Source: Mayamaea pseudoterrestris (lineage: Eukaryota). From it: a stretch of DNA of 64,000 nucleotides. A program made the position numbers and the translations under genes. The stretch spans positions 62,001 through 126,000 of the forward strand of contig BROI01000005.1 in assembly GCA_027923505.1 (NCBI GenBank). The letters run 5' to 3'. Under the pieces are notes generated by a model, which did no database searches, had not been told where the DNA came from, and was given only the letters and a program-made list of their open reading frames with translations. Shown here in pieces: positions 8,486-50,232 of the stretch (the stretch's first letter is position 1; the number at the start of each line of letters is the position of its first letter).

Positions 8486-8621
8486 GGTGATTTTGTGTTG
8501 CGTTTTGCGTTTGCGCGAAATTTTTTAGCGTCGGACTGGTATTGAATGGGTACCGGTGCGATTTTAGTCTTACCGCGAATGGCTGAACACGACAACCTGC
8601 GCCTCACAAATTTCCGTCACC

Positions 8622-9467
8622 ATGGCGTCCTCCTTGATGTCTCGACGGCTGGTTGCGAAAGCACCATTCGCCCAACCGATTGCGAGAAAATGCCTGCAAT
8701 CTGAAGTTGTAAACTATCAATTAAATCATTCACCATTAGCTCGTTCATTTTCGAGTCGACCGCCTCCGCCTCGCCTCCGATTTCCTCCCGGCTTTGACTC
8801 GATCGCGCAGCGCGCCGTCCGGGGCGACCAGGATAACGTTCGACCACACGTTGTGACGCTATTTCCCGGCGACTTTTCGGATGATTCTGATTCCATCTTT
8901 GACACGGAGGAAGCCTATGGCGGTGAACGAAAGAATGCTGCTTCTGCAGCTGACGACGACGACAAGACTGCCAAAATTATGGAGGAACTAAAATTTTTGG
9001 AGCAGCAAGCCGCTGCCAAAAAGCAACGATGGCTCGACAACAATGAGCCTCCCGTTCGCGTTTCGGAGATTGACGAGCGAGGTCGCGCCTACGGACGCGG
9101 CGGTCGCAAGACGGCGTCGGCGCGTGTTTGGATCCAACCGGGATTCGGACAAGTCTTGGTGAACAAACGACCGTTCGTCGAGTACTTTGCAAGACAATCG
9201 GACCGTGACTTGATATTGGAACCCTTAGTGGTGACGGAGACCTGCGGCAAGTTTGATGTGACCATCATGGTGCAGAGTGGCGGCCTCACTGGACAGGCTG
9301 GTGCGGCCCGACACGGAGTGGCGAACGCCTTGAACCACTACAATCCCGATTTGTATCGGTATCCGCTCAAGCGCATGGGCTTTTTGACGCGCGATGCGCG
9401 CATGGTGGAGCGAAAAGTTGTGGGACGCGTCAAGGCGAGAAAGTCGCCGCAGTGGGTGCGTCGTTGA
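8622..9467 (+). CDS. MRPS9: Mitochondrial ribosomal protein uS9
   Basis: GRGGRKTASARVWI, GGLTGQAGAARHG and LTRDARMVERK..KARKSPQWVRR, with an Arg/Ser-rich N-terminal presequence. Confidence 0.93.
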   Translation: MASSLMSRRLVAKAPFAQPIARKCLQSEVVNYQLNHSPLARSFSSRPPPPRLRFPPGFDSIAQRAVRGDQDNVRPHVVTLFPGDFSDDSDSIFDTEEAYGGERKNAASAADDDDKTAKIMEELKFLEQQAAAKKQRWLDNNEPPVRVSEIDERGRAYGRGGRKTASARVWIQPGFGQVLVNKRPFVEYFARQSDRDLILEPLVVTETCGKFDVTIMVQSGGLTGQAGAARHGVANALNHYNPDLYRYPLKRMGFLTRDARMVERKVVGRVKARKSPQWVRR

Positions 9468-9525
9468 GTGCAACGAGGTTTGGCTACTGTTTACGTAAAC
9501 ATGGATCATTACGCATATAATATAT

Positions 9526-10420
9526 CTATGTTCTACGCTTTACATATGTCCCAATCCAGTTCACATCTGTATCGTTGGCATCCAGCTTCCAGTCCCAGTT
9601 ACCAAAGAGTGGCGGCTTGTTGAGAACCATTCCAGTGACATTGACCTGTTGGAGCGATGTATTTGCAGCAGCCATTAGGCTTTCCACTTCACTTGGCGCA
9701 CAATACTTGTTCCAGTCATGCGTTCCAACTGGAATATACTTCATAATGTATTCGGCGCCAAGGATTGTCAATAGATATGATTTCATGGTGCGATTAATGG
9801 TGGAAATAAAGAGTAATCCATTTGGCTTTAACAGTTTCGACGACGTTTGCAAGAGTGACGAAACGTCCGTCACATGCTCAATCACTTCGAGTAGACATAT
9901 GACGTCAAAGCCTTCCGCGTGCTGCGCCGCCAATTCCTCCGCAGTGGTGCACTGGTAGCTAATGGATTGCATTCGCGTCGAGCAGCAAGCTGTGGGCTTG
10001 GGCAGCCTCGACTAGCTTGGCGGAAGGATCAATGCCTGTCACGGTGGCACCAAGGCGGGCCAGTGACTCGCAGGCAAGGCCTCCGCCACATCCAATGTCC
10101 AGTGCGTGTAATCCAGACAGTGGTAGTGTTGTTTGGTTGGGATCGTTTGTCACCGTGTCTGGGCCGTGATGCTTGAGTATCATGTCTCGAATGTACTGAA
10201 TACGAATGGCGTTCATATGTATCAGCGGATTCTTCTTGGCATCCCACCAGCTATCATCGAGGGCACTGAATTTTTCAACTTCCTTGCTGGAAACGGAAGA
10301 GTTGTTTCGCATTATGATGTCGAGTCGACGACCAACAAAGGTCACTTTTGATGGCGCAGCCGTGACTTTAGCGATGCGTGATAGCGGCTGCAGCGCGTAT
10401 CTCGACATTAGTGAGCTCAT
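9526..10420 (-). CDS. COQ3: Ubiquinone biosynthesis O-methyltransferase COQ3/UbiG, reading frame broken at ~9973
   Basis: EVEKFSAL..WWD..LIHMNAIRIQYI and LDIGCGGGL..ESLARLGA lie in one frame; FDVICLLEVIEHV..STINRT..GAEYI..GTHDW lie in the next. No usable intron between them. Confidence 0.85.
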
Positions 10421-11277
10421 TCTTGTTGATGCAATAGTAAAAAGATGATTGTATTAACTGTAAGTGAGCATTTTAACTATTCATGGGACCTCCAATCGAC
10501 GGAAGAAAATAATGGCGAAAGCGTTTCGAAATCTCATAAGGCTGGTTAACGCTACGACAGAAATCCGAGGTTTATCCTCGCTAGTACTGAGGTATGGAGT
10601 TTTTTTGGGTCACATCCGGGTCTTTTCCGGGTTGTGATAAAAAAAATCCTTAAATAAATGCCGTCGGGGCTTAAGTAAAAAAAATATCCCTGCTCAAACT
10701 CTACAGCAAGGTTTAAATCGTCATACAGAAAAGTACTATCGTGCACGGAAAAGACATAAATCTATGTTAGTACTTATTAGGGTTAATTTTAATTAAGCTT
10801 ACACAATGTTACACACTGTTTTTATTTATGGCCTGTTTTATAGATACCTTTTTTACTTATGTATTATGACCCTTAACTCGCATTGGTTATAAAGCATGAC
10901 GCTCCTTTGGCAATTGCAAACAGTTCGTATGCAACTTGGATGGCCCAATAACAGCATTCAACACTTATTCCATCCTTTAATATACAAGCGGCAACGGTTC
11001 CTGATGTCTATAATGGTTATATGGTTGGCGCTGGCTTTTGAAACGAATTTGCTGAAGCATTACAGTGGGGAACTGCTATGACGTTACGTCATACGGTACT
11101 TAAAGTCACACCGGTACTTATCGCCGTCAGTCAAAAATCATCAAAGCCGGCGCTGTCGATGGAATCGATGGAAAAAGCGGTGGACCTGTCGTTTGTGTCA
11201 TTATAACTCTACCATCAAGTTGATTCGCCCCATATCATTCACTCATCCTGTACAAGATAATATCAACACCACCAGCT

Positions 11278-13223
11278 ATGAGTGATCAATATAACTTCAG
11301 TCACTTGAAGCCGGCTCACCGAGTCATCAATGTTGATTCTGAGTCTGATGATGACGATTTCGACCCTTTTGACAGCCATAGTGACCATGACACACCATCA
11401 ACTACCATTCGACCAGCTTCCTTGGCAAAAATTGACAGTGAAGACACAACTCTTGGCTTGATTCGTTTACCTGCAAATTTACCTGCAAATACACTTCAAC
11501 ATGAGGAAATTCTGGATCAATCAGATCAGGATTATCGCACGGGCACCATTGCTGAGTTAGTTGCGAGTAACAAGGATATTCCAGAACTATTGAAACTCAA
11601 AACAACAGACGAGTTGCAAGCACACCTTGGACAAATCTTTCATGGATTTTGTTCCATGAGGGATTTGTGTAACAAAAAGCGGTCATCATCTGCCTTTGAT
11701 GGTCTTGATACGAAATGGCAGGAAATACTGAAACAAAACAAGAGTTACTACACTGGCATTGTCGATCTCTTCATGACTTACATCTATGTTGCGCATGTGC
11801 TTGGAATCGAACTGTTTACTATACCCAAAGGATCCAAGGAGTTGCCAGTTTTGATTCGTAAAATTTTCGGTAAGAACTATTTTGCTGTTGTAATTGAGGC
11901 AGGCGTCGCTAGATTTCACACAAGCTTCAGTTCTTTTCGATGACAGCAATGACAGGTTCCAGCTTCAAGATCAAACATACAATGGCAAATGCAAAATCAT
12001 GCACCGTTGGGTGACGCAGCTAATTAAGAACGAGGAGATTCAATTGCCCTACATGTCTGCACTTGTTCCGGGGGCTTTTCAGATAAGCAACAATGCTCTA
12101 TGCAAAAAAACTTCACCAAATTCCTACGATAATGTAATGGGATTTCTTTTGACAATTGTTAACGCCATGTTGCTGTCCAAGGATGTAATTGGCTATAGAG
12201 GCAACCAGATATGCATGGCCTTGCCACGTTTAATTACATGTCAACGCTCCATGGGGCATGCAATACTTGGCTGTTTCTTTGATAAGGTAATTATTTGAGC
12301 TGAATACCTTTTGCCTTATCCTGTCTTCTAATCCCTTTATACAATTTTAGAGTCTTTTTGATGCACCATACTTTCAATCATTACTTGTTCGTGGTTCAGC
12401 TTTTGCTAAATTGATCTCGACAACCAATGGATGCATTCTACCTGCCTTGTGTTTGAACTTTGTTTTATACTGGCTTGCAGCTTCTTTTGATTCCACTCGG
12501 GACACTTTTGTTAAAAATCGTAACCTGGGGACAGGATTACTCCAGGTGCAGTCTCTGAATTCGGCTGGCAAAGAAAAATTTGGATTTGCATTCGAACGAA
12601 ACTACAAAACTGTTGTCTTGGAGGTATTCAACAAACTGTTTGGTGCTTCATTGTCTGAGGACCCATTGGAATATCGACGCAAGGAAATTCAAGTGAACTT
12701 TGGGACAGATCTTTTGGTCTTCTGTCTATTGCAGAAAAAGTTACCTTCCTTTGAAATCCATTTTGCAAAGTATACAAGGAATGGAAACGCCCGGACGCCT
12801 CCGTCTTCGAAACATAAGAAGCTCAAGAAGGAATTAACTCATACTCCACCAGCAAACATTTGTCTGCAAGGGAAAATGTCGCCAAACGAATACGAACACC
12901 CTCATAGGAAGACGTTGGAGGTTTTGGTACAGTCAACCTTACAATCGCTGGAAGCATTGGTCCATATATTGGAAGAGGATGCTGATTTGTACTGCTCCTT
13001 GAAGCAAAATTTGAATCAGGCCATTTTAGATTGTTTTTCGCAAGATAAAACTTCCGATGCAAAGATCGGGAATGTTCAAAAAGTGCTTGATGACATGGAG
13101 GACCAAATGGCCACCTTTCGTCCCATTCCTGGTGATACAACCTTTCGTGTATTCAAAGAAACAGTAATCAACTGTGTTACTTCATGCTGTGACCAAGCAA
13201 CTGCTACGTTCAAAGCACTCTAA
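11278..13223 (+). CDS. Island gene A: hypothetical protein, 3 exons (introns 11870..11930 and 12287..12350), ~606 aa
   Basis: Three ORF-track pieces join in frame through canonical GT-AG introns (KIF-VLFDDS; FFDK-SLFDAP). Confidence 0.7.
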
Positions 13224-13672
13224 CTTTTTATATAGAAGCCTAAATTTATACAGGAGCCTAAATTGAAACACCATCTTTTAACCGTGTGCTGTGCAATGCA
13301 CTGCCTTTTCACCTGTTATTTTCATTGAACTAAACAGTTCAAATAGAGATTCCAATGTTTTGGAAGGAAAAGAAAGGGCTTTTCAATCCATATGTGGACC
13401 GTGATTGAACAATCGCTGTAATGATAATTACTTTCATTGCGTGATTAAACGCATAAAGATACTGGTTGAAATAGACTTCCGGGTTATTATTGTAATATTC
13501 GAATGGTTTAATTCTTATGCGAGTGACAAAACATCCGGGTTAATAATATTTCTTGTGCGTTGGATGCAATCGCTTATGTTTATGTATCATTATATGTCAT
13601 CGCTGGAAACAAGTTTGCAATATAAAAACATCGCCAATTTGATCCAAGTGAACCGTTTGTCAGCATGTATTT

Positions 13673-14385
13673 TTGGAGGAACAGGATGTTCCTGTCCTTT
13701 TGAATTCCAAAAAAGAGTTAGCTTTTGCCACTCACGTGAAACTAATTGAGTCTGGTCTTACTCTCATGAAGAATGACATGAAGAAGCTACGTGACGCCGG
13801 ACATGAAGCCATTCGAAAGAAGGAATCGCTAATCTTCATGAATGATCAACAAGACTACTTTTCGGCTGTGGTGGATTTACTGAGGACCTACATCTTCCTA
13901 GGCAATCGCTTTGCTGACCAACTCTTCCAACTTACCAGGGGGAGTGAAGAAATGGTCACATTGTTTCGCAAGTTGTTTGGTAAGTGAAACATCTTGTATC
14001 CCAAGCATAACAATATATTCAGATTATCTAATAAGCGACAACAATCCTAGTTTTATTTGACAGCCCAGTCACTGGTTCCTTTACAATAGAGGCCACTAAT
14101 CAAATGAATTTCCTAGTGTATCAGCCTTTCAATGCATATAAGTGTCAAGGTTTTTCATTTTTTTACGACAGCATGATGCCGCTACTTCAATGGCTATGCA
14201 ATCAAGTCCGGAGGAGGCTGCCAGTTCCTTTGAGTGTGATGCAGGGTGATATTGTGGTGGACTGGCAGTCAAGCGATGAGCATGAGCGACCCAACATTCA
14301 CAATCATTCCATGATTTACACCGAAAATATGGCAGGAAATGGTAGGAAGGACTTGTTTGTTGATACTTTCCCATTGGCACAATAA
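13673..14385 (+). pseudogene. Island gene B: partial paralog of the gene A N-terminal region (intron 13980..14050); start not evident
   Basis: YFSAVVDLLRTYIFLG..LFQLTRGSEEMVTLFRKLF-VLFDS aligns with gene A YYTGIVDLFMTYIYVA..LFTIPKGSKELPVLIRKIF-VLFDD, with the intron at the same position and phase. Confidence 0.55.
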
Positions 14386-14815
14386 AAATATGATCTTTTA
14401 ACTACTATAATTAATTGACCTGTGTATTGAACTGGTCATCTGCCTTTAGAATGGTTTGGCAAAAAATGTCAATCGCCAATTCACACTCTGTTCTCGCTAA
14501 ACAACAACACTTTTCAGTTGACGCGTCTGAAGCCATAGTTACACCCCTGTTACTCGCTGGTCCACCTTGATTACATGAGTGAGAGGAGGCCGCCAGCTTC
14601 TTTGACTTTTGCAGTGTGATATTGTGGTGGACTGGCAGTGAAGGGGGTAGCATGAGCAACCTTCGTTAATATGTACTGAAAAGATGGCAGGAAATGGTAG
14701 GCAAGAGTTGTCTGTTGATACTGTATCCTTATCACTAGAAATATGGTTTCTCTATTATGTTTAGATAAGCTAACACTTGTCAAGTGCGTTCATAATGGTT
14801 TGGCGGCAAAATGTG
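14210..14815. repeat. Diverged ~370-bp-period tandem duplication
   Basis: GGAGG..GCCAG..GTGATATTGTGGTGGACTGGCAGT..ATGGCAGGAAATGGTAGG..AATGGTTTGGC occurs at ~14210-14470 and again at ~14582-14815. Confidence 0.75.
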
Positions 14816-15210
14816 AAGGATTTCTTCATATGCAATGCAGCCATGTGTTGTTCCATACCTGCAAATTCCATTTGATACAATCTCTTCAACAAGCGTGTAT
14901 CACCGTGAATCGGTTCCACCTCTATCTTGTGCGAGTCGGAGTAAGTTCTGTACGTGCTTGACAGATACACCAGTTGTGTTTTGAACTTGCTGTAAATAGG
15001 AACGTCTACAAGGCCGTTTCCGACTGTTTCCAGAGCCTGGAGACATGATCGAACAATCAATTCCATTGGCATTATTTTTGTTGCCCATTTTTGTGTATCG
15101 TGGTGCCTACGTTTTGTTGTTGTTCCTTTGCTTTTGCTTGCGCTCGACCTTTTCTTGGTGTTTGCTTTCTGCTTGGAATTGTGTTTCATATCTTCTGGAT
15201 TAAAGTTCAT
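14770..15210 (-). CDS. Island gene C: small basic protein paralogous to the gene A C-terminus
   Basis: MELIVRSCLQALE..IYSKFKTQL..MEQHMA..FTFCRQTIMNALDKC vs gene A LEVLVQSTLQSLE..LYCSLKQNL..MEDQMA..FRVFKETVINCVTSC. Lys/Arg-rich N-terminus resembles an NLS. Confidence 0.6.
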   Translation of the reverse strand: MNFNPEDMKHNSKQKANTKKRSSASKSKGTTTKRRHHDTQKWATKIMPMELIVRSCLQALETVGNGLVDVPIYSKFKTQLVYLSSTYRTYSDSHKIEVEPIHGDTRLLKRLYQMEFAGMEQHMAALHMKKSFTFCRQTIMNALDKC

Positions 15211-15480
15211 TCTAAAATTTCTTCCTATCTTCCTATCTTGCTTATATATTGTCTGATCTTACAGAGAATATATCTTTTTCCTCCTTGTAAGGTGCTCAAC
15301 CTTTCGCTTGGCTTCTGTCGTGACCTCTCGTTCCGAGTCGAAAAATGTCAATCGTCAGTGGGCATCTTTTCTCACATGCATCATGAAAGCACATGTCACA
15401 TTGGTGTTTTTTGTGAAAACACTAACTTTTGACGATGTAACTCAACGGCTTCTTCTTTAACTTTAAGTCTCGTATTCAAT

Positions 15481-15585
15481 TTGATGCGTTGTGAAACAGT
15501 GCGGTTTGATGCGTTGTGAAACACTGTAAGATGTGACATAACTTGTGCCCATTCAGTTTCACATAACTTGTGCTCATTCAGTTTC
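15481..15585. repeat. Two adjacent 25-bp-period direct repeats in a divergent intergenic region
   Basis: TTGATGCGTTGTGAAACA at 15481 and 15506; ACATAACTTGTGCYCATTCAGTTTC at 15536 and 15561. Confidence 0.85.
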
Positions 15586-15683
15586 AATATTATTGTCAAG
15601 TAAGCTGTTTCAAGTGTATATTTTCAACACAGGAACGAAAATACATCGTATTCTTACATTTTGAGCGGGAGATATTGTTTATT

Positions 15684-16370
15684 ATGTATGTCATTGTATG
15701 TTCTCGACCGTTCCCCACAGATTGCAAACCTTTCCCTACTTGGAAGTCGTTGTATCTGTATCACTGTGCATTCGCACGAGTACATCAATTAGATCTGATT
15801 CAGCATCTTAGGGCAAGTGGCTCCATTGAAATTAAACAGTTTTTACAAAAGTACGGACAAAGTTATACAGTACATGAATTGGATGATATTGTTTTTGGTG
15901 CAAAATCTCCTTGGGACGCCAAGCTTCGTTTTGCAATAATCAAACAATATCGATACATGTACGTACATGTGATGATGGGGTTTGAGACGAGACCAAGGAA
16001 ATACGGAAGATACAAGCTAGTTCGAAGATATATTGAGCCAACAATAAGCACCTACCAACCTCGTATTGTTTTGGATTGCACCAATTTAAAGAAAGCAACC
16101 ATGGCAAAAGATGCTACTGGTGCATGGGCATCAAATTGGAATTTAGGTTGGATGCAACTAAATGTGCCTGGGAGTGTACAAGAAACAGGACATAACTATT
16201 ACTACACTCCTGAGATTGGTTTCAGGTTGGTGTCTTTGGCGGAAGTCACTCAGTTTCGATTAAACTTGAGTCTTGTACAGGGCAATGGTTGGGAAGCGGA
16301 AGATCTTGCCATGTTCATGCTTCTCGAGCAACATCACAAGTTCGCTTCTGATCCTGTTAAAGACACATGA
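15684..16370 (+). CDS. Island MBD-like protein 1 (degenerate methyl-CpG-binding-like domain at the C-terminus)
   Basis: GWMQLNVPGSVQETGHNYYYTPEIGFRLVSLAEVTQF follows the MBD pattern GW..YY.(S/T)P.G....S..EV..F. First ATG at 15684. Confidence 0.6.
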   Translation: MYVIVCSRPFPTDCKPFPTWKSLYLYHCAFARVHQLDLIQHLRASGSIEIKQFLQKYGQSYTVHELDDIVFGAKSPWDAKLRFAIIKQYRYMYVHVMMGFETRPRKYGRYKLVRRYIEPTISTYQPRIVLDCTNLKKATMAKDATGAWASNWNLGWMQLNVPGSVQETGHNYYYTPEIGFRLVSLAEVTQFRLNLSLVQGNGWEAEDLAMFMLLEQHHKFASDPVKDT

Positions 16371-16385
16371 CTTGTCCAGTTTCGA

Positions 16386-17042
16386 CTATTTTTTTCCATA
16401 TGTATATAGTATTAGCTTCATGGCATATTCTTCTGAGTCAAGTTGAGAATAGCAACCTTCTTGGTCGTCTTGGTCAGGTTGTGACTTTTCCAAGAATTGA
16501 ATTGTGTACCACATGAATAGTGACACTTTTTTCAAGGAGTCCAACTCAAAAGCATACAGCGGGGTGTAGTAATACCACTTTTTTCTGGTAGAGGATTGTT
16601 CAACAATGCAAGACCACCCAATATTTTTTGGAAGCATCACTTTATTCCATTGTATCCTCCTTTCTGAATATGGGCTCATTGGTATACCTTGTCTATCACA
16701 CATGGTGCGGTGGTTTATGTGCATAGAAATGCTGTATGTGTGTTCGCATTCACACAAAATATTTTGCGTGGTTCCTCTTATGTTATTTGGGAGATGGATA
16801 TTGAAACCCATCATGTGCAGATCCATAAAGCGCATGGCTGATATCCTTTGTTCTGATGTTAAACTTTTCATGAGAGCAGTCATATTACTTTGAATTTCAA
16901 TTTTGGATAGTTTGTCTGATGGGTCTGGTTCCACAATTAAATCGACATAATCTGTTTGCGACAATAAAATATAGTTCCTTATAATGTCAATCTGTTTCAC
17001 GGCAAGCAGAAGTACATATTTTGTTGTCAGTACAACAGACAT
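16386..17042 (-). CDS. Island MBD-like protein 2 (degenerate MBD-like domain at the C-terminus)
   Basis: LPKNIGWSCIVEQSSTRKKWYYYTPLYAFELDSLKKVSLF, plus a terminal EEYAM helix shared with the two neighbours. Confidence 0.55.
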   Translation of the reverse strand: MSVVLTTKYVLLLAVKQIDIIRNYILLSQTDYVDLIVEPDPSDKLSKIEIQSNMTALMKSLTSEQRISAMRFMDLHMMGFNIHLPNNIRGTTQNILCECEHTYSISMHINHRTMCDRQGIPMSPYSERRIQWNKVMLPKNIGWSCIVEQSSTRKKWYYYTPLYAFELDSLKKVSLFMWYTIQFLEKSQPDQDDQEGCYSQLDSEEYAMKLILYTYGKK

Positions 17043-17359
17043 ACCAAGCTATTTCGTTTAGATTGTTTCTTTGTTGATATTTGACCAATATTGTGTTGTG
17101 CGTCTTGCAACTGACTGCTAAGGTGCAACACTCGCTCATTCATCGCCAAAAAAGTCAACTGTAATGAAACGTAGACATTAAAGGATATATATCCGGGTGA
17201 CTCGCAGATTTTCTAAGTAGTCATGATTGGTGCGCCATGGTGTGTCATTTGGAACAAAATGTTTGTTTGGTGGAATCGACGACCGTTGAAGCTTGACACC
17301 AAACAACAACATCAAGGTTCATAAATTTGCTACGAGACAATAATTCCAACAATTGCATT

Positions 17360-18016
17360 ATGAAGGTGGTTATTGAAACCAAATTCAATCCCAAAGGAGA
17401 ACGTTTTTCTGCTCATGTTTATAATTATATGTTCTGCTCCGCTTACTCAATTGTTTTTGGTGTAAATAGATACGAAACTATTGGAAAATTCGGAATACAT
17501 GATCTAGTTCTTAAAATAATGGGCATTCCACTTCCACTTGGATGTGAGCGTCTAACAAGAGTTGTGCTGGGGCCTGAACAGAAATATTACAAAGATTATC
17601 TTTTGCAGTTTAAGGAAGTAACATCATTCGTTCGTATGGGATTTTGGATGATATTGAATGGAAGCAATATCACTTTTGTTCGAACATACTCAGATTTGCA
17701 TATGGGACTGAACAAGAGACCAAAAAAAACATTACAACAACTTTCAACTTATCATATTGAACCCCCATTTTCATTGTCAAGAGATCTATGTCGGTTATGG
17801 GGACACAATTGGATTCAAATGTCAGTTCCTAGAATGAAAGATCCTGGCGGAAAACATGACAAGTACTATTTTTCACCTCGTTGCGGATTCAAATTTCGGT
17901 CTGTTCCGGAAGTAAACAGATTTCTTTCAGCATTGGAAAGGGTGAACGAACCAGACCCTAGTATTGCAGAAGAAATTGCCCTCAGTTATGTGAAGTTATT
18001 CAAACACGCCGCTTAG
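17360..18016 (+). CDS. Island MBD-like protein 3 (methyl-CpG-binding domain with canonical residues)
   Basis: NWIQMSVPRMKDPGGKHDKYYFSPRCGFKFRSVPEVNRFL aligns to MeCP2-type [40 protein letters not shown]. First ATG at 17360. Confidence 0.75.
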   Translation: MKVVIETKFNPKGERFSAHVYNYMFCSAYSIVFGVNRYETIGKFGIHDLVLKIMGIPLPLGCERLTRVVLGPEQKYYKDYLLQFKEVTSFVRMGFWMILNGSNITFVRTYSDLHMGLNKRPKKTLQQLSTYHIEPPFSLSRDLCRLWGHNWIQMSVPRMKDPGGKHDKYYFSPRCGFKFRSVPEVNRFLSALERVNEPDPSIAEEIALSYVKLFKHAA

Positions 18017-18194
18017 TTGCTTATCCATATAAGGTTAAGACACATCTTTACTAGGAAATGTGTTTTGTATCTCGACAAAGTAGCATTCTTGAAGCGTAAT
18101 TTAGTAATCGAAATAAAAGTAACACAAACTTTGCTTCATCCAAAGCTCCTAAAGTAGGTGCTCCGGGGAATACAATCCTTTTGTTTGTAGTCCT

Positions 18195-18775
18195 ATTTTA
18201 TCAACAGTTGAAACGCATGTTATAATTAAAAGGTCCGTTGGAAAATATGGTGATGCCTTCTAACTATTCCATGTTGGCGATAAATACCAGTTTAACAAGT
18301 GAAACCTATTTATTGGTATGAGGTTTATCAACTGACACCTAACAAGTCATTCTTTATCAACAGTTGAAACGCATGTAATACTTTTTCAATTAGGAATCCT
18401 GGATCTACAAACCGTTGAAATAACTATTCATTTATTTTGCTTAATAATTTGCGACTATATATTGATATGCACGTTGAAAAATGGTGACGCCTTCTAACTA
18501 TCTTGTTTTGGCGATAAATGCCGGTTTATCAACTGAATTCATTCTGTATCAACAGTTGAAACGCATGTTCCTTCTTTCTTGACAGTTGAAACGCAAAACA
18601 TAATTTAGAAAACCCGGATCTTGAAGCCGTTGAAATATCTATTTAGGCGCTTTGCGAAGTGAATTACAATTAAACATTGTTATATTGAACCGTTGAAACG
18701 TTTTGGTGATGTCTTTTTCTGTCAGTTTTGCAAAATCATTTATTCCAACGCTTCATTTGGCAGTTGAAATGTGTT
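18195..18775. repeat. Degenerate tandem repeat array with palindromic core TCAACAGTTGA
   Basis: TATCAACAGTTGAAACGCATGT is exact at 18199, 18355 and 18547, partial at 18581. A ~60-bp ATGGTGA.GCCTTCTAACTAT..TTGGCGATAAAT block occurs at ~18246 and ~18481, with many further GTTGAAA copies. Confidence 0.85.
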
Positions 18776-18844
18776 CCCCTTGACGGTAACATTTGTTGAT
18801 TAACAAAATGCTCATAAAATAGCAGGATCATTGATTTCAAAATC

Positions 18845-19656
18845 ATGGGGAAGGCTGCAACTTCGAAAGGAAAGGAGGATCCAAAGGGTCCCTCCAACAT
18901 TGTGGCAAAGCATGCCTTGTCACCACCTAGAAGCAGTAAGCAAGGGAGAGGAATTGAGACAAGACTTATCTCGCATCCAATTCATGCTGAACTTTCCCTG
19001 CAGCTTGTTACTTACGAGGACAACTTGGAGCGTCGAGATGCCTACAATTTCCCACTGAAAGATGGAATCAAGAATCCTCACACTTTGACCGAAAGAGCCA
19101 AAAATGCTGCCATTACTTACGTGAACAGGAGAATTCCAGGAACAGATGAAAACATGATGCAGTTGAATTCAACGTCTGGTGAAGCTTACCCCAGAGCTGT
19201 TTTTATTCGTAAGTTTCCAGCTCCTCCAACTCCTTTGGAACGTAAAGAAACCATGGATATCATGGAAGAAATCATGCGAGCTAGTGAGACGGGAAAGTTC
19301 CCTCCGCCCAATATTCGAAAAGTCGATTACACACCTAGAGATCGTGTCCGCCCTTTGGATGACTGTAAGTTTGTTGCAATGCTATTTACAAGTTTGATAC
19401 AATCTATTATGGTCCCCTGTATCACAGTTCGGGTCAAATGTTGCTGTTGTAACACAATTTACTAACCATATTTCATTTTTATTAAGTTCTCCATGATGCT
19501 ACCATTGAAACTTTGATTAAATCATTGTACGACTTTGAACATCTTAATGAAGAGTTTGCTGAAAGCTATGGCGATTTATTGGACAGCATTTTTGGTCATC
19601 CCACCAGCCATCGGTTTGCCAGAGACTTAGGAAGAGCCAGTAACGAGAGTGAATAG
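18845..19656 (+). CDS. Island gene D: hypothetical protein, 2 exons (intron 19365..19486), ~229 aa
   Basis: A GTAAGT..TAAG intron joins RPLDD-FLHDATIETLIKSLYDF..SE* in frame. Confidence 0.65.
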
Positions 19657-20090
19657 CTAGGAGAATAAAACCTGCCTCACTTAATGATCTAGTAGTACCT
19701 GTTATAAATCCAACTGCATCAGTTACAATTTCAAACCATTATACCATTTGTTGATATTGAACAAGGCTTTACAGAGGCTTGTACTTTAGAGCGTACGGTA
19801 CTGATATGCATATTTCATAGATACACTGTGCGAAAGAGTACAATATTTCCTACGTTTTCATCGTACAGTAAACCTATAAACCGAGCCCCCTGAACTGAAT
19901 AAGGTTTTCATAACCGCATCGAAAAGTTGCTTCCGTGGTGTGAGCCATCCGTTTGGCAAAGAAAAAACCATCGCGCCTCGTTCGATCTCACTCGAACCTA
20001 TCCTCCTTGCATATAGGATCCCTTCTTAACGCACTCTCATCAACTACTACCTCTTCATTATCATATTCATAAGTAACACTTTAACTAACA

Positions 20091-20873
20091 ATGCCGCAAC
20101 ACGAGCACATGGAGCGTCACGCCAAGCTGCACGGCCGTCGGTTCGACGCGGAGGAGCGCGAGCGCAAGCAGGAGGCCCGCCTCGTGCACAAGCGCTCCGC
20201 CTTTACGCAAAAGGTGCACGGCATTCGCGCCAAGCTCTTTCACGCGCGTCGCTATCAGGAGAAAGCGACGCTGCGCAAAACGATCAACATGCACAATCAG
20301 CGGGACAATAAGCATGCGAACGATGATGCCATTGCGGAAGGAGCAGTGCCAGCGTACTTGCTGGATCGACAGGGAGTGTCGCGGGCCAAGGTACTGAGTA
20401 ACACCATTAAGCAAAAGCGAAAGGAAAAGGCTGGCAAGTGGGAAGTTCCCATTCCAAAGGTCAAGCCAGTGGCGGACGATGAAATGTTCAAAGTGCTACG
20501 CACCGGAAAGAAGCAAGCCAAGTCGTGGAAGCGCATGGTGACCAAGTGCACCTTTGTCGGCGATACGTTTACGCGCAAGAATCCAAAGTACGAGCGATTC
20601 ATTCGGCCGACGGGTTTGCGCATGAAGAAGGCCAATGTGACGCATCCGGAACTTAAGACAACCTTTCAACTGGATATACTTTCGGTCAAGAAGAATCCAT
20701 CGTCGCAGCTATACTCGAGTTTGGGAGTCTTGACCAAGGGAACTGTGATTGAAGTCAATGTATCTGAGCTTGGGTTAGTGACAACGTCTGGAAAGGTGGT
20801 TTGGGGCAAAATGGCTCAAGTAACGAACAATCCGGAGCTTGACGGCTGCGTGAATGCGGTTCTATTAGTGTAA
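20091..20873 (+). CDS. NSA2: Ribosome biogenesis protein NSA2
   Basis: 260 aa with [47 protein letters not shown] and [10 protein letters not shown]. Confidence 0.96.
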
Positions 20874-20954
20874 CGAAATAAGTTCAACATGCATATTTAC
20901 CATCCTTTTCAACTATATCAGTAAGTAACATAGCTTCTACATTCGTAAGTTGTT

Positions 20955-21760
20955 TTACAGTTCACTTGCCGTTTGCAAATCGCTCCATCGCTGGCCTCCG
21001 TAATCTACCAGTAGCTCTCGCATTTGCATGTAGTTTTGCGTCGTCGGATTCGGTTTGTCGGGCAAATTGGATGGGAGAATCATGGCCATGATATCCATGA
21101 CTGTCACGGTATGGAGGCCTCCCATCATGCCTGTGTACAGTATATGGAAGAGGAGGAATGCGTGAGAATGTAATACTCTCAGTCAAGCAGCATTGTTGAC
21201 TGCATCAACACACTCATGATGCATTCATTCCTTCATTTATACTCTTGTCACTCACTATCAAAGTCCACATTCACGTCCGCACCCGCCTCCAGCAACAGCC
21301 GCGCCGCCTGCAAATGACCATTCTTGACGCACATGCTCAGTGGCGTCTCTCGCATGGTGCGATCGCCCACGGTGCGCTCGTCAATGGTGGTTAATGACGA
21401 TGTTGATGATGACGCATTCAGTTTCAATTGCGCGAGTAGCCACTCGATCACGTCCACTTGTCCGGAAATGCTGGCCAAGTGTAGACACGTTTCGCCCGTG
21501 GCAGTTCGTCGCGTATGAATCCAGTCGGAATGGTCCTGCAGAATGGATTGTAGTGTTTGCAGTGGTCCGTTTTGGCAGGCGCGAAAGAATTGCATGACTT
21601 GGTTGGCTTGTAATTCTTTATCGGTTATATCATCTTTATCATTATTGGCTACAGATACATATGATGTCGAGCCGTAGCATAGTAAAAGTAGTATAGCAGT
21701 TATGCTACGTAATTGGCTGCGTCGTCGATGATTCGCCATGGTGATGTTGTGATGGATCAA
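20955..21760 (-). CDS. Secretory-pathway ankyrin-repeat protein, 2 exons (intron 21131..21255), C-terminus ..ASEL
   Basis: Hydrophobic signal ITAILLLLCYG and ankyrin motifs GETCLHLASISGQVDVIEWLL and TPLSMCVKNGHLQAARLLLEAGADVN. Exon 2 reads SMMGGLHTVTVMDI..LLVDYGG..TASEL*. Confidence 0.75.
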
Positions 21761-21775
21761 GTGGCAATCAGAAGT

Positions 21776-24700
21776 CTATGACTGCTGATTGCCCTCGGTC
21801 GCTCGAATGCTACTTTTCCGCACAATGGCTACTTTAGCTAGATGGACAACAAGTCCTAGATGGTCTTGGTTTGTGGTTTGGATGTCGAGGAACGCCTGTG
21901 TCTTCCGAAGCTTCGTGGCCACCCGCTCGTCGCTGATGAAGTCACTTAGTTGACGCAATGAGGCACGAGTGATGGACGGACTTGGCGTATCGATATGTTC
22001 ACGACGACATCCGGAGCAACCAGCATGGTCTCGAATGATATAAGGCATACAGATGTGTCTGCCATCAACCTTTGGAATAACAATGCCTTGTCGACTCCAA
22101 TCGTTCATCAAATGGTTTATATTTAATTCTGCGCCGCGAACATCGTCCTGCCACACTAACAATGCACGCGCAGCAACTCGCCGATACGTACCCTGATTTG
22201 TTTCCTGTCGAGCCTGTCCTCCATTTTGTCGAGATGTTGATGCGATGCGATCGGCTGGGCGCGCTGGTGGGCGGTCATGTGTTTGACGGCGATCCGCCAC
22301 CGGAATCAGGCGTGTGTCGGATTGAAATTGGACACCACTGAAGCGGCCATCACGGCGTAGGGAACTGTTACTTGAGGTTTCGCGTGAATGGCGTTGCGCT
22401 GGGAGAATATCTGGTGGTACCAGCTTGTTAAATGGTCCTTTTGTTGGGAGTGAGACCGCTCGCAAAGAGTCGGTGGTGAAGACTTCGTCGATGGTAGTGC
22501 GCCATTCCTGCAATTTGGATTTGAGGTGTGCGCTGCCAAGGGCATGAACAATTGGACGGAGAATAAGAATGTCTGAACGTTCGGGCGAATCATGTAGATG
22601 TGCCTCAATGCAGTGTGCACTCCCGTTGTCAGTGTCGGCAAAATCGGACATTATTTCAATCAAATCACCGACGTGTATAATGACGGCACCGGTTGCTTGG
22701 AGGCGCTGAGGGCCACTGAGGGCATCCCAAGCGGTCGAAAATTCGTGAACGTTAAAGCGTTTGAAAAGATACAGCATGTTTCCTGCGAAAGGCGATGCTA
22801 CCACCCATGGTGAGGCGCCTCGATGGAGTAACTCGAGCATGTCATATCGATCCGGCATATGGAACATCTCGTGAAGGAACCAGAGAAAGTTTTTCCCATA
22901 TTTGAACATGTTTAAGCTTGTCAAACCTGCGGCCGGGAGTTGCATGCCGGACTCTTGGATGGTGGAAATGAAGTGCCAGGGTGTGAGCGCGCTGGTAAGT
23001 TGGTGTGTCTTGTAACGCAAACCCGACGCAAATGCCGCCGACTGGACGGCTTGAATATACTCCGGTCGCTCGAACATGTCAAAACAGTCAATGGCCGGGC
23101 AACAATAAAGACTGAATTTATTCTGATTGACCGCAGCTTTGTAGGCGCTCTGGAAAAAGGCAGAAACGTTTGCCGGCTTGGCCGTTGTGATGGTGGTCAA
23201 CTTTTCCTTGTCAGAGGATTTTATGCCATACACCTGGCAAGCAAATTTTAGACTCAGATATCCTGGCATGAGCCGATGACTGGCTGGATAGACTTCAGCG
23301 GATGAGGGGCCAATGTCCAAGCTTAGCGTGCTTGAATGGCAACCAAGGAAAGCCAAGCGAGTCTGGTGAATACCCAGTGTTCCATTAATGTAACCCTCGC
23401 GAGTAAACACGTGCGGATGCGACTGATATTTCTTTGGTGAGGGCAAGAGGAAATCAGGGTGCGAGTAGGAATTGGTGGTATACAAATCGACGAGCCGGCT
23501 CTCTGGTTGTTCGCAAGGCAGCATGTACTCCGAAGCTGACAGAACGGATGCGACTGTGACGCCAAAATCGGGTAGCTGGTAAACTTGTCGTGGTCTAGTA
23601 ACTCGGAGTACCTCAATGCTATGAATTGTATGTTCGTCCGAATGTGAGCGCTTGGTTGCACCGCTTCTACGCTCTAACACGCGAGCTGGCGGTTTCCTCT
23701 CGTCGTCTGACTCAGCAGAGTTTTGCGTGCGAATGTGTGCTGGGGATGAAACTGTTTTAAAATTGGCACCGAACATCGATGCGAGGAGATCACCGGCGTT
23801 GGGCGGTGCCGTGTTCTTGTCCGCCTTGTCGGGAGTCTGTGCCGCCGCGAAAGCATTTTTCGAAATAATGCAAAAGGGAGCAGGCACTGGTTCTTTCTGT
23901 CCTGGGAGCTGTAAGACTTTGAACTCCGCTAGGAACTTTGGCATATTCGTCTTGAGGAAAGGAATATGAAATTTTGCGCGCCATGTGGAAATCTTTGGGT
24001 CGCACAAGGCGAATACGAACGGTGCATCCAAAATGTTGGCGCGGTGGAACGCGGCAAGCTGAGGCGTGTTGTTGATAGCTTGGATCGACAGTTGTAGATA
24101 GTGCGAAAGCTTTTCTGTCCATCCCTTCTTTTCCAAAACCATACTTTTCCAAACGTTGTCAATGACCATTTTGGCACGAAGCGAAAGTTCCGGAAAGAGG
24201 AAGAGGTGCTCGTGCGCCTCGGAGGGATTGTCTGTGAACGAGTCCCATGAATCTTGCGCATCAAACATGAACAGCGAATCAATAGTCATCTTGTTTGGTT
24301 CCATTGTGCAAGCGCGAAGCCAAACTGGCAAAGTGGGAATGTCATCGAGCCACTTGTAACAGTCGTCCGAATATCCGGTGAAATCCATCAAGTGTATCTT
24401 GAGGTCAGCGACTGTGCCACACTTTCCAAGATCAAAGGGAACACCCAAAGGAAAACAATGGCCAGTCGGTAAAAGGAACGCGACGGACTGGACGCACATG
24501 GCGTGGCCGGCTGTGGCGGTTGATGCGAGCGCACAGATGGGTGGATCATGTTCTTGGTCTTCGAATCGCGGATACTCAGTGTGAGTGCCCTCGCCGACGA
24601 AAAAGTGAATGAAGGGGGAATCCAGAGGGGGAATATCCGTTCCATCGCAAATGAGAGAAACTGGGTGTGTCAACTTGTTGCCCCGCGGAATTACAATCAT

Positions 24701-25354
24701 CGAATTCTTGGAGGACGTCCACCACTCCTCGATGGGAGTCAACAAAGGTGCCAGACCGTCACGTCGAATGGAGAGCAGGATGGGCTTGATGCTTGCTGGC
24801 GCCTCAATGTTTCCAGGCTGCCAGAGGAAAGGGTTTTCATCGTCGACGCGATTTCCCGAAAGGAGCGAATGGTGGCTCGTCGAATGAGTCCTGTTGGCAC
24901 TACTTGAACGCTTGGGAATGTCGTCACCAAAAACGAAAGGGTCGTCGCATGATGGTCCAGATGGGAAAGCCGCCGCCATGAGGAAAGGTCCAACTTTGCC
25001 GACGCCTGGAACCTTAAAGGTGGAAAGATAGAATACTCCTCGAAGGGCCGCATGGCCCATGGCCTTGAAACTATGGTGGCCACTGCGGAAATCGAACGTC
25101 GAATTGTCCTTGGTATAATCCGCGTCGAACAGAGTAATCTTGGACATGGCTTGGTTCACCTCCATCGTCTTCTCCTTGCTGGTCAAGCCGCTGTCTCCAT
25201 CCGTTTGGAGCTCCATGCTGTCCGTTCGGTCCTGTTTTGACGGAACCTGAGTTCCCAACCACGTATCATCAAGAGGCGACTCCTCCGGAAGCAACAAGGC
25301 GACCGTAGGAGACCCCGAGAACGAGGCGAGAGCAGGAGGACTGACGACAGGCAT
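21776..25354 (-). CDS. Large orphan protein (1192 aa) with a C-terminal CCCH-like knuckle; possibly transposon-derived ORF1
   Basis: Uninterrupted ORF with C-x10-C-x2-C-x3-H (CMPYIIRDHAGCSGCRREH) after a disordered Arg-rich segment. No other recognisable domain. Confidence 0.6.
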   Translation of the reverse strand: MPVVSPPALASFSGSPTVALLLPEESPLDDTWLGTQVPSKQDRTDSMELQTDGDSGLTSKEKTMEVNQAMSKITLFDADYTKDNSTFDFRSGHHSFKAMGHAALRGVFYLSTFKVPGVGKVGPFLMAAAFPSGPSCDDPFVFGDDIPKRSSSANRTHSTSHHSLLSGNRVDDENPFLWQPGNIEAPASIKPILLSIRRDGLAPLLTPIEEWWTSSKNSMIVIPRGNKLTHPVSLICDGTDIPPLDSPFIHFFVGEGTHTEYPRFEDQEHDPPICALASTATAGHAMCVQSVAFLLPTGHCFPLGVPFDLGKCGTVADLKIHLMDFTGYSDDCYKWLDDIPTLPVWLRACTMEPNKMTIDSLFMFDAQDSWDSFTDNPSEAHEHLFLFPELSLRAKMVIDNVWKSMVLEKKGWTEKLSHYLQLSIQAINNTPQLAAFHRANILDAPFVFALCDPKISTWRAKFHIPFLKTNMPKFLAEFKVLQLPGQKEPVPAPFCIISKNAFAAAQTPDKADKNTAPPNAGDLLASMFGANFKTVSSPAHIRTQNSAESDDERKPPARVLERRSGATKRSHSDEHTIHSIEVLRVTRPRQVYQLPDFGVTVASVLSASEYMLPCEQPESRLVDLYTTNSYSHPDFLLPSPKKYQSHPHVFTREGYINGTLGIHQTRLAFLGCHSSTLSLDIGPSSAEVYPASHRLMPGYLSLKFACQVYGIKSSDKEKLTTITTAKPANVSAFFQSAYKAAVNQNKFSLYCCPAIDCFDMFERPEYIQAVQSAAFASGLRYKTHQLTSALTPWHFISTIQESGMQLPAAGLTSLNMFKYGKNFLWFLHEMFHMPDRYDMLELLHRGASPWVVASPFAGNMLYLFKRFNVHEFSTAWDALSGPQRLQATGAVIIHVGDLIEIMSDFADTDNGSAHCIEAHLHDSPERSDILILRPIVHALGSAHLKSKLQEWRTTIDEVFTTDSLRAVSLPTKGPFNKLVPPDILPAQRHSRETSSNSSLRRDGRFSGVQFQSDTRLIPVADRRQTHDRPPARPADRIASTSRQNGGQARQETNQGTYRRVAARALLVWQDDVRGAELNINHLMNDWSRQGIVIPKVDGRHICMPYIIRDHAGCSGCRREHIDTPSPSITRASLRQLSDFISDERVATKLRKTQAFLDIQTTNQDHLGLVVHLAKVAIVRKSSIRATEGNQQS

Positions 25355-42813: not shown

Positions 42814-43588
42814 GCTTGGTCGCTACTATTGTATCAAGTCTTCAAGAAACTATGGGACTCGCCGCCAATTCGATGTTTGTAGAGTCAATGGCCGATTATA
42901 AGGTAGAAGGACAATTTTCGGCCGCGGAAGCGTGACAAGATCGAGAGCAAGTTTTATGTGGAGAATCGCCGTAGAACTCCTACCGAATCGGTCGTAGGAT
43001 CTAAAACGGCAAGCTCTTCAACACCCGAGACCTTCTCGTCGCCAATTACCAGTATTTATATGATAGTAGGATCAAGTATAGCAACAGTAATGCGCTCAAT
43101 ATGGAGTCTCGAACAAATAGGTGAATACAGTGTCACACCAACAGATGGACACACACGACAGATACGATCGACAAGCTTCGCTCCGGCAAAATGCATGATG
43201 CGTGACAAGAGCAAGCAAAAGGAGAGGCCGAGAGGAAAGCACTCGGTCGAACGAAACCTCGGAAGCCAAGATGGATTCAACCACCACGCGATTCGCCCGA
43301 TCAAGGCAGTCAAGCGCGCCGTCCGCGCTTTTTAGTGTCGCAGTGATATTGAAACGTCACGGCGTGACGTTCATGTTCTTTGAAACGGCTGGCGTGCTAA
43401 CGACACAATGTTAGCTAACAGTAAGGAACGTTTGACAATGTTGTCAAAGTACAAGATCATGCTAATTCACCACTGCTATCCAATGGCAATACCCTGCCAT
43501 ACCTTACTAGTGAGATTTGTAAATATACAGCACTATTGATAATCCTTCATGCTCAACTATAAAGTCGTGTAAAAATGTAGACTTGCGA

Positions 43589-50056: not shown

Positions 50057-50232
50057 CAGTAGTTAAGGGCTTGTTATTGTACATTCTGTAAGTCTATCTA
50101 TTGCAGATTGTATTCAGCCTCATCGACGTGATGAGGTCCGAGAAAGCAGCCAGTATCGAACAGTAGCGACAATCAGGCCTTTGTCGTACATGTTAAGACA
50201 GCAAAATTTTGACACGCTATCGCAAACCCTCA

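Follow-up and report, generated by a model that had tools for sequence, protein, structure and literature searches.

The genome of the diatom Mayamaea pseudoterrestris contains, in an AT-rich stretch, three small genes whose products end in an apparent methyl-CpG-binding domain (MBD), and the locus raises the question of whether these proteins can still read DNA methylation and whether they belong to the host or arrived with a mobile element. The window analysed here is the whole 64-kb stretch of DNA that contains them.

Three neighbouring genes of one predicted family

ORF1 (15684..16370, plus strand, 228 aa), ORF2 (16386..17042, minus strand, 218 aa) and ORF3 (17360..18016, plus strand, 218 aa) are uninterrupted and alternate in orientation, in agreement with the preliminary description of three neighbouring frames of about 220 aa, and the stop codons of ORF1 and ORF2 are 15 nt apart. 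The island in which they lie holds five ORFs of at least 200 aa; mononucleotide shuffles gave none in each of 500 trials. An alignment of the three proteins reveals 20 invariant columns, including W..P..YY..P...F...S...V..F and E..A, which confirms the common C-terminal pattern proposed earlier. The N-termini, previously described as dissimilar, are not wholly so, because the first nine residues are alike (MKVVIETKF, MSVVLTTKY and MYVIVCSRP). No clear motif is common to the regions upstream of the three ORFs.

Pairwise identity within the trio is 23-27%. ORF1 and ORF3 are related at a BLASTP E value of 9e-9, and the similarity of ORF2 to ORF1 and ORF3 is weak (E 0.011 and 0.016). With a profile made from ORF1, ORF3 and the C-terminus of P0004, ORF2 nevertheless reaches 16.5 bits; P0004 is a second Mayamaea protein described below. 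None of 1000 shuffles of ORF2 attains this value (best 8.7 bits). The three proteins are divergent paralogues, each with an MBD and then an acidic helix at its C-terminal end.

MBD assignment and contact residues

The Pfam MBD family (PF01429) matches ORF3 with 29.7 bits (E 4.9e-7), above the curated gathering score of 21 bits, whereas ORF1 and ORF2 have no Pfam match at E<=10. The latter two do match a lineage-specific profile of stramenopile-type MBDs, for which 19 short canonical hits were the sole input and which gives 59.0 bits for ORF3, 32.8 for ORF1, 18.1 for ORF2 and 19.1 for P0004; the expected Pfam match holds for one member of the trio. ORF3 also aligns with the MBD2 and MBD3 chains of the PDB (E 0.004-0.005), with both Arg fingers, the Asp and the Tyr in register. 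The canonical domain of ORF3 spans residues 147-197 (nt 17798-17950) and precedes the acidic helix. In ORF1, a degenerate MBD occupies residues 152-207 (nt 16137-16304) behind a conserved "MGF" extension, and in the most degenerate copy, that of ORF2, the core of the domain is matched over residues 149-177 (nt 16512-16598).

The residues that contact methyl-CpG, which we take to be R111, D121, Y123 and R133 in MeCP2 numbering, with E137 added in the preliminary description, were read from the columns of the hmmsearch alignment. ORF3 retains all five equivalents (RDYRE), as had been claimed for the protein starting at 17360. This is the commonest contact pattern, found in 36 of 89 aligned domains, and R-D-[YF]-R is kept in 69 of the 89. 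ORF1 reads G-H-Y-V-E and ORF2 gap-K-Y-D-K, so that both arginines are gone in each, and the earlier statement that these two have lost the Arg/Asp contacts holds as well; their frames are intact despite the loss of the Arg fingers. Taken together, Pfam, the PDB match, the lineage profile and the residue columns support the assignment of all three ORFs to the MBD type, one canonical and two without the Arg/Asp contacts. Since ORF3 keeps the canonical methyl-CpG-contacting residues, it is most likely a binder of symmetrically methylated CpG, whereas ORF1 and ORF2, with both Arg fingers lost, are most likely no longer able to read methylation. The loss resembles that in mammalian MBD3 and in those other MBDs that, according to PMC6673714, do not bind methylated DNA.

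The degenerate state of two copies may also suggest that the genes are non-functional relics, i.e., decaying MBD gene copies in silenced DNA that are still open owing to recency and not to selection, with ORF1 and ORF2 being pseudogenes in all but frame. The CpG observed/expected ratio (o/e) within the ORFs is low (0.66, 0.40 and 0.75 for ORF1, ORF2 and ORF3), which indicates strong decay, and the contact residues are lost in two of the three. In addition, no protein in a library of 1.84 billion comes closer than 68 bits; the ORFs do not retrieve themselves, and the library thus contains no annotation of them. However, three open frames of 218-228 codons persist at 37-41% GC, although not a single ORF of at least 200 aa arises in any of 500 shuffles; the copies are old, as their low identity shows, yet the start, the length and the core W, P, YY, P, F, S, V and F are kept; and ORF3 retains every contact residue. 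Decay of this kind is therefore regarded as unlikely.

Structure models

The MBD fold consists of a beta-sheet wedge with a helix after it. The AF2 model of ORF1 residues 62-228 has a mean pLDDT of 70.5, with values of 75-91 in the MBD part. In a Foldseek search of the PDB, the three top-ranking entries are all chains of MBD3 (prob 0.89-0.92, TMt 0.50-0.55), and the best rows comprise MBD3, MBD2, MBD1 and AtMBD6; the best E value is 0.18, and no match reaches E<=0.001. In a search independent of Foldseek, helical hairpins lead (Z 5.7), and the first MBD is AtMBD6 (7fef) at rank 43, with Z 4.0 and an rmsd of 1.8 over 45 residues. For ORF3, single-sequence modelling gave a poor result (pLDDT 39). 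The ESM Atlas yielded no usable match with ORF1 and, with ORF3 residues 83-218, only leads below 0.9, some of which are MBD clusters.

Relatives of the trio

An exhaustive profile search of the 1.84-billion-protein library found 61 proteins, 46 of which carry the Pfam MBD. Seven of the 61, bacterial proteins with LRR_5 or Flg_new repeats, match the part of the profile preceding the MBD and were rejected as false positives. Only one of the 61, P0004, contains the whole 150-aa module of extension, degenerate MBD and helix. P0004 is the M. pseudoterrestris hypothetical protein MPSEU_000479100 (753 aa), which carries DUF6570 and Helitron_like_N, i.e., Helitron-like Rep domains. Its residues 601-753 align with ORF1 over 165 columns (30% identity, E 8e-23), and this C-terminal module is 35% identical to ORF3 (E 4e-12); like ORF1, P0004 is without both arginines. 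Whereas the module forms the C-terminus of a Rep-domain protein in P0004, the trio ORFs stand alone, with no such domain within the 64-kb window. Word-based searching with ORF3 retrieved no relatives, nor did a search of metagenome and viral contigs with a two-sequence alignment or of metagenome contigs with ORF3 alone.

The stramenopile-type MBD proteins (e.g., P0002, P0005, P0008 and P0015) have the core consensus GW.K...PR..G....D.YWYSP....KFRS..EV.RFL..L...GDE.KA in common with the trio, in which the E(E/D).A(M/L) helix corresponds to GDE.KA. As a rule they have at least two MBDs or additional Tudor, HMG or chromo-like domains, which the trio does not, and, unlike the trio family, they have no MGF extension. 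These features suggest that the trio may be tandem paralogues of a small, lineage-restricted MBD family, which would derive from a stramenopile-type reader (an MBD, then an acidic "GDE..A" helix) and would have gained a conserved helix and beta-hairpin extension (R-[YF]-M..H..MGF) ahead of the MBD.

A haplotype-specific block

The trio lies in an AT-rich, CpG-depleted block of 9391 nt (10511..19901) that is delimited by contig joins and composition. Contigs from three public runs of two studies (X1, X2 and X3) join 10510 directly to 19902, with the 9391 bases absent and 45 other letters between. The filled form is represented in X1 and X2 by a contig of 5058 nt that spans 14950-20007 with 0 differences. 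The depths of the empty-site and trio contigs are similar, at 111 and 100.3 in X1, 17.8 and 19.2 in X2, and 6.2 and ~6.7 in X3. Because both forms are assembled, the block is hemizygous, one haplotype carrying it and the other not. In the empty form, the two conserved housekeeping genes on either side are separated by 90+45+189 = 324 nt, and it is this divergent promoter region that the block fills. The 45 letters are unrelated to the block, and the empty site is thus not clean.

The description of the island as foreign-looking is borne out by all three measures of composition: its GC content is 0.39 compared with 0.50 in the flanks, its CpG o/e is 0.74 compared with 1.09-1.15, and the GC3 of its genes is 0.31-0.48 compared with 0.51-0.66 for the flanking host genes. 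From the CpG depletion, which is observed directly, we infer long residence under methylation, and the composition of the island would then be that of long-methylated DNA.

Apart from the trio, the block contains, from left to right, a non-coding multi-copy repeat (10560..11050), defined by contig depth and by loose ends at 10560, 10968, 11000, 11009 and 11048; an orphan gene A (11278..13223, plus strand); and A' (13652..13987, plus strand), a partial paralogue of gene A exon 1 (30% identity, E 2e-14) that ends at a GGTAAG donor in the position equivalent to that of exon 1. The exons of gene A, inferred by eye with GT..AG introns, lie at approximately 11278-11869, 11913-12287 and 12351-13223. 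Gene A has no Pfam match, and its exon 3 has no homologue in a word-based search among longer proteins. A 146-aa ORF at 14770-15210 resembles exon 3 by eye; the similarity is not significant (E 0.12), and the ORF was not retained as a relative. To the right of ORF3 are short direct repeats (18189..18605; a 39-nt unit four times and a 61-nt unit twice), an orphan ORF of 206 aa (18845..19465, plus strand) from the ORF list with no Pfam family above cut-off, and a right-terminal segment (19851..19900). Neither Rfam nor tRNA scanning gave a match in the island or the window.

Foreign composition and orphan genes would also be expected if the block had been acquired recently from a virus or some other organism, with no endogenous element involved. 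This explanation appears very improbable: the MBDs are of the stramenopile type and are followed by a GDE-like helix, gene A has spliceosomal-type introns, no match is found in viral contigs, and the CpG depletion argues for long residence under methylation.

Copy number of the trio and of the block ends

Travel of the trio in multi-copy elements, which the preliminary description raised as a point to check, is not supported. In the read contigs of X1 and X2, a single contig covers 15001-19500 at >=85% identity, the depth over this interval equals that of the one 5058-nt contig, and the trio is single-copy at that threshold. The summed contig depth over 10501-11000 is 407 in X1, 106 in X2 and 22 in X3, compared with 100, 19 and ~5 for the trio contig, although contig depths are not copy numbers. 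The segment 19851..19900 recurs on other contigs with different flanks, as seen from contig joints and from loose ends behind 19900 in X1 (two contigs) and before 19851 in X3. A piece of 13679-14001 is present at 86% identity on another contig, of 14550 nt, and a joint 13679/19851 lies on that contig. These contig ends and depths suggest that the block ends recur elsewhere in the genome, and the true element probably spans 10560-19900.

In a further data set, X4 (organism C), only eight short contigs (151-297 nt, depth 2-3.4) were found, five on the island with 0 differences and three on or beyond the flanks with 4, 5 and 9 differences; these may be carry-over within one study and not a second host.

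Origin of the block

No transposase, RT, integrase, Rep or helicase gene was found in the island or the rest of the 64-kb window, either by Pfam on the island ORFs or by tblastn of the window with all 61 profile-search proteins, which touches only the three trio ORFs; residues 1-600 of P0004 have no match in the window. The block ends show no LTR, TIR or target-site duplication (TSD). The earlier proposal of an element-encoded reader module is thus supported in part, by the insertion-like block, its composition and the Rep-linked relative P0004 but not by mobility genes, LTRs or TIRs.

These observations are partly those expected of ordinary host genes, that is, of a lineage-specific tandem MBD cluster in a variable, methylated, non-recombining region that the other haplotype has deleted, with no mobile element involved. 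Low GC could arise there because methylation drives CpG decay and because a hemizygous stretch does not undergo GC-biased gene conversion. In addition to the absence of mobility genes and terminal repeats, the trio is single-copy, introns and an internal paralogue give gene A the look of a resident gene, the 45 extra letters of the empty form would be compatible with a deletion or a complex rearrangement, and the 46 MBD-bearing relatives among the 61 are ordinary MBD proteins without TE domains. However, the block occupies a space between two conserved genes that would otherwise be a short promoter, it differs widely in GC3 from the host genes, its ends recur at other loci, and the only full-length relative of the trio is joined to Helitron-like domains. 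A host-gene origin is accordingly a credible but somewhat doubtful alternative.

The best explanation, which we consider to have an even chance of being correct, is that the trio is a diverged MBD family carried as cargo of an insertion. The 9.3-9.4-kb block would owe its movement to a mobile-element mechanism for which it does not itself encode the enzymes, and Helitron-type capture would be the lead among element classes because the sole other family member, P0004, is joined to Helitron-like Rep domains; this link comes from one of the 61 proteins, a hypothetical protein. A non-autonomous Helitron would itself lack Rep/helicase. Helitrons have a 5' TC and a 3' CTRR with a subterminal hairpin, insert between A and T, and have no TIR or TSD. 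The absence of TIR and TSD fits a Helitron; inspection by eye at 10511/10560 and at 19900/19901 revealed no canonical termini, and the 45 letters of the empty form make the exact positions of the ends uncertain. If the block is such a cargo insertion, ORF3 may dock on the methylated CpG of silenced repeats, probably including its own island. Having no recognisable effector domain, it could shield these sites or compete with host MBD readers; alternatively, it may tether a partner via its N-terminal half.

Relation to known systems and significance

Although ORF3 resembles the canonical MBDs (MBD2, MBD3 and MeCP2) in its match above the PF01429 cut-off and its aligned contacts, the trio proteins differ from these in being tiny, in having no effector domain and in carrying their own helix and beta-hairpin extension before the MBD. 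The preliminary description likened the trio to VANC, the anti-silencing protein of plant VANDAL elements. VANC is not known to be an MBD protein, and the likeness would lie solely in the proposed logic of a transposon-borne DNA-binding protein that counters methylation silencing. To our knowledge, the proteins that read DNA methylation in diatoms have hardly been characterised. A literature search found no paper linking diatom MBD proteins to transposons, and PMC3145265 makes no mention of MBD proteins.

The statement that no such module had been described requires qualification: it agrees with this search as far as diatoms are concerned, but transposon-captured MBDs have been published. As described in PMC6673714 (de Mendoza, Pflueger & Lister 2019), Copia retrotransposons of arthropods captured host-derived MBDs that are functional methyl-CpG readers (CopiaMBD), and it was proposed that the element benefits from reading the methylome of its host in this way. 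In both cases, a host-derived MBD resides on DNA that is mobile (CopiaMBD) or possibly mobile (the trio). However, the CopiaMBD domain lies inside an LTR-retrotransposon protein of multi-copy elements, whereas the trio consists of stand-alone genes, in three diverged copies, in a single-copy block of a stramenopile without retrotransposon genes. So far as the literature search shows, the arthropod retrotransposons are the only published case of a transposon-borne MBD.

A wider proposal, which we consider improbable but worth stating, is that diatoms host a family of rolling-circle (Helitron-type) or similar cargo elements with a captured and diversified methyl-CpG reader, that the proteins steer insertion into methylated DNA or blunt MBD-based silencing, and that the block is a recent insertion in a housekeeping promoter. 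As part of that proposal, and with the same low probability, ORF3 would be the one true reader, and ORF1, ORF2 and the Mayamaea Rep fusion would be Arg-less copies. For binding and methylome work, the trio offers a small natural series in which one reader is canonical and two paralogues are naturally "mutated", and the presence/absence allele within one strain provides a built-in control. The sequence link to Helitron-like proteins would extend the capture of epigenome readers to DNA elements and to the stramenopiles. Should the block be no more than a variable region of the host, the significance is more modest, namely a new, fast-evolving MBD subfamily.

Three MBD-derived paralogues

The trio consists of three ORFs that are uninterrupted in the standard code, ORF1 (15684-16370, + strand, 228 aa), ORF2 (16386-17042, - strand, 218 aa) and ORF3 (17360-18016, + strand, 218 aa), exactly where the preliminary description placed them. 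ORF1 and ORF2 are convergent, with stop codons 15 nt apart (16371-16385), and ORF2 and ORF3 are divergent, with a 317-nt spacer. The 3' UTRs of ORF1 and ORF2, if any, would necessarily overlap in antisense (16371-16385), a possible source of double-stranded RNA. Five ORFs of at least 200 aa are present in the AT-rich island that contains the trio, versus none in 500 of 500 shuffles of the island, which indicates that these frames are not due to chance. Identity among the three proteins is 23-25%, and 20 columns, mostly in the C-terminal third, are invariant; their first nine residues are also similar, which argues that the start codons are homologous. The relationship is clear between ORF1 and ORF3 (E 9e-9), whereas ORF2 stands apart (pairwise E 0.011-0.016). 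Against a profile built from ORF1, ORF3 and the C-terminus of P0004 (MPSEU_000479100, 753 aa), ORF2 reaches 16.5 bits, and none of 1000 shuffled versions of it scores above 8.7 bits.

The Pfam MBD match (PF01429) that had been proposed as a check is obtained for ORF3, with 29.7 bits against a curated cut-off of 21 bits, and for neither ORF1 nor ORF2 at E ≤ 10. Among PDB sequences, ORF3 yields 12 rows, exclusively MBD2, MBD3 and plant MBD5/6 chains (best E 0.0038), and its VPR, HDKYY and FRS residues align onto the Arg, Asp-x-Tyr and Arg of MBD2/MBD3. An exhaustive profile search with the three-ORF alignment (1.84 billion representatives, E ≤ 0.001) returns 61 proteins; the top score is 68 bits with no self-match to the trio, and the proteins of the window are therefore absent from the searched library. 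All 61 were scanned, and Pfam MBD is present in 46. A further seven carry other domains or none, and one is the Helitron-like P0004. The remaining seven, bacterial LRR_5 or Flg_new repeat proteins, match a part of the profile outside the MBD and were rejected as false positives. Against a profile of 19 short relatives, which were preselected by similarity to the ORFs and of which at most 15 have a Pfam MBD match (E ≤ 0.001), the scores are 59.0 bits for ORF3, 32.8 for ORF1, 19.1 for P0004 and 18.1 for ORF2. The E(E/D).A(M/L) helix noted earlier at the end of all three proteins has a counterpart in the alignment of the relatives, the GDE.KA helix located directly after their MBD. The relatives bearing it are probably of stramenopile type, P0004, from a diatom, being the only one with a named source.

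The five methyl-CpG contact positions named in the preliminary description (MeCP2 numbering) were mapped across 89 aligned domains. ORF3 carries R-D-Y-R-E, the commonest pattern (36 of 89), and R-D-[YF]-R is kept in 69 of the 89. The corresponding residues are G-H-Y-V-E in ORF1, gap-K-Y-D-K in ORF2 and G-D-gap-I-Q in P0004. The earlier reading of one intact reader and two degenerate ones is thus right at the sequence level: the trio comprises MBD-derived paralogues by sequence, one canonical and two without the arginine fingers. ORF3 would be expected to bind methylated CpG, and ORF1 and ORF2 would not.

Predicted structures

Modelled without an alignment, ORF3 gives a poor model (pLDDT 39) with a beta-beta-beta-alpha C-terminus. 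The model of ORF1 residues 62-228, from a 23-row alignment, has a mean pLDDT of 70.5 (75-91 in the MBD part) and contains two main strands, a helix and a second long helix, preceded by a helix and beta-hairpin of moderate confidence. A Foldseek search of the PDB with this model gives nothing at E ≤ 0.001; ranks 1-3 are MBD3 chains (E 0.18-0.24, probability 0.89-0.92, TM to target 0.50-0.55), and MBD2, MBD1, MeCP2, AtMBD5/6 and the BAZ2A TAM domain appear in lower rows. A Foldseek-independent search mostly retrieves two-helix hairpins (best Z 5.7), with AtMBD6 in 43rd place (Z 4.0; rmsd 1.8 Å for 45 residues). The predicted fold agrees with an MBD but is weak evidence alone, and the MBD case rests mainly on the sequence comparisons.

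A compositionally distinct block on one allele

The island (10511-19901, 9391 nt) is bordered on the left by a COQ3-like methyltransferase gene (start 10420, - strand) and on the right by an NSA2/S8e-type gene (start 20091, + strand). The COQ3-like gene falls into a pair of ORFs (9959-10420 and 9526-9972, - strand), which fits a short intron or a frameshift. As the preliminary description held, the island looks foreign: GC is 0.39 versus 0.50 in the flanks, CpG o/e is 0.74 (0.40 in ORF2) versus 1.09-1.15, and GC3 is 0.31-0.48 in its ORFs versus 0.51-0.66 in host genes. Besides the trio, it contains the orphan gene A (11278-13223, two apparent GT..AG introns), a partial paralogue of the first exon of gene A (A', 13652-13987, E 2e-14) and an orphan ORF of 206 aa (18845-19465), for none of which a Pfam family or homologue was detected. 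Short internal duplications are also present; downstream of A', a direct duplication (14211-14367 and 14583-14722) has a spacing of ~370 nt and 83-88% identity. Just to the right of the island, a 1192-aa ORF (21776-25354, - strand) matches no Pfam family (E ≤ 0.01) and is rich in Cys and His at its C-terminal end.

Logan contigs from four public sequencing runs were compared with the window over 8001-23000: X1, possibly the source sample; X2 and X3, from another study; and X4, labelled as another organism in the study of X1. The contig with the trio (14950-20007, 5058 nt) shows 0 differences in X1 and X2. In X1, X2 and X3, another contig runs from 10510 straight into 19902, the 9391 nt being replaced by 45 different letters, and its flanks show the divergence of a few percent expected of an allele. 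The block is therefore present on one allele and absent from the other. The depths of the trio and empty contigs (100.3 vs 111, 19.2 vs 17.8 and ~6.7 vs 6.2) fit a filled allele and an empty one, contig depth not being copy number. The block could instead have been deleted from the other allele; however, the two housekeeping genes at its borders would stand head to head and 324 nt apart without it, which makes insertion the simpler reading.

Allelic divergence is also seen in the flanks at 8001-10510 and 19902-21300, where the haplotypes are several percent apart (for example, X3 record 17 has 72 substitutions and 13 gaps in 1649 nt). Elsewhere in the window, 41843-52585 and 52585-63327 are perfect head-to-tail tandem copies of a 10,743-bp segment (99.99% identity) with at least four long ORFs (399, 448, 954 and 352 aa), which could reflect a very recent duplication or an assembly artefact, such as two alleles placed in tandem. 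In X4, contigs of 151-160 nt at depth 2-3.4 are identical to island pieces (10856-11006, 13198-13488, 15248-15407 and 16553-16703) and may reflect library-to-library carry-over, not a second host.

Origin of the block

Contig depth and breakpoints give signs that the block ends recur elsewhere. The summed depth over 10501-11000 is 4-5x that of the trio contig in X1, X2 and X3; in one contig unrelated letters give way to a match at 10560, in two others the match ends at 19900 and unrelated letters follow, and on a separate 14550-nt contig stretches ~86% identical to parts of 13403-14001 are joined to one that begins at 19851. The inserted unit would be 10560-19900 if the empty form's 45 letters represent a diverged 10511-10559. 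The left ~4 kb (11038-14979) has a loose end at 14979 and 1.6-1.8x the depth of the trio contig, and it may have a second near-identical copy. Over 15001-19500, neither X1 nor X2 has a second contig at ≥85% identity. At that level the trio is therefore single-copy, which does not support travel of the trio in multi-copy elements.

P0004, which its source lists as hypothetical and which comes from the diatom Mayamaea pseudoterrestris, is the sole carrier of a transposon domain among the 61 profile matches. Its last ~150 residues are 30% identical to ORF1 (E 8e-23) and 35% identical to ORF3 (E 4e-12), and the alignment extends well upstream of the MBD across a common R-[YF]-M..H..MGF segment; the remainder comprises DUF6570 and a partial Helitron_like_N. 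This link to Helitrons is a candidate pointer rather than proof. The block ends show no terminal direct or inverted repeats and, by eye, no canonical Helitron termini, and tblastn of the 61 proteins against the window matches the trio ORFs and nothing else, with no Rep-like sequence. The block probably arrived by a mobile-element mechanism, carrying the MBD genes along as cargo. The leading candidate is a Helitron-type capture, which would account for both the missing TIR/TSD and the P0004 fusion in Mayamaea. The proposed element-encoded reader module is partly supported: the insertion-like block on one allele speaks in favour, and the lack of mobility genes and the single-copy trio speak against.

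Methylation and possible roles

Loss of CpG with gain of TpG/CpA is the classical footprint of cytosine methylation. TpG/CpA o/e is 1.28 in the island versus 1.17-1.19 in the flanks, which, with the CpG loss, suggests that the island has long been methylated. Among diatoms, methylation in Phaeodactylum is reported as largely TE-restricted (PMC12344493). In the openly accessible full texts searched, no paper was found that links diatom MBD proteins with Helitrons or other elements. The novelty claimed in the preliminary description has to be narrowed, as capture of a functional MBD by transposons is described for arthropod Copia elements (PMC6673714); a chromatin-evolution preprint (10.1101/2021.11.30.470311) cites such capture as a general phenomenon. 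What is new here is an MBD subfamily carried by an insertion-polymorphic block, transposon-borne MBDs as such being already known. Candidate roles of ORF3 are to aid silencing, to block silencing as a decoy, by the proposed analogy with VANC of plant VANDAL elements, or to guide insertion.
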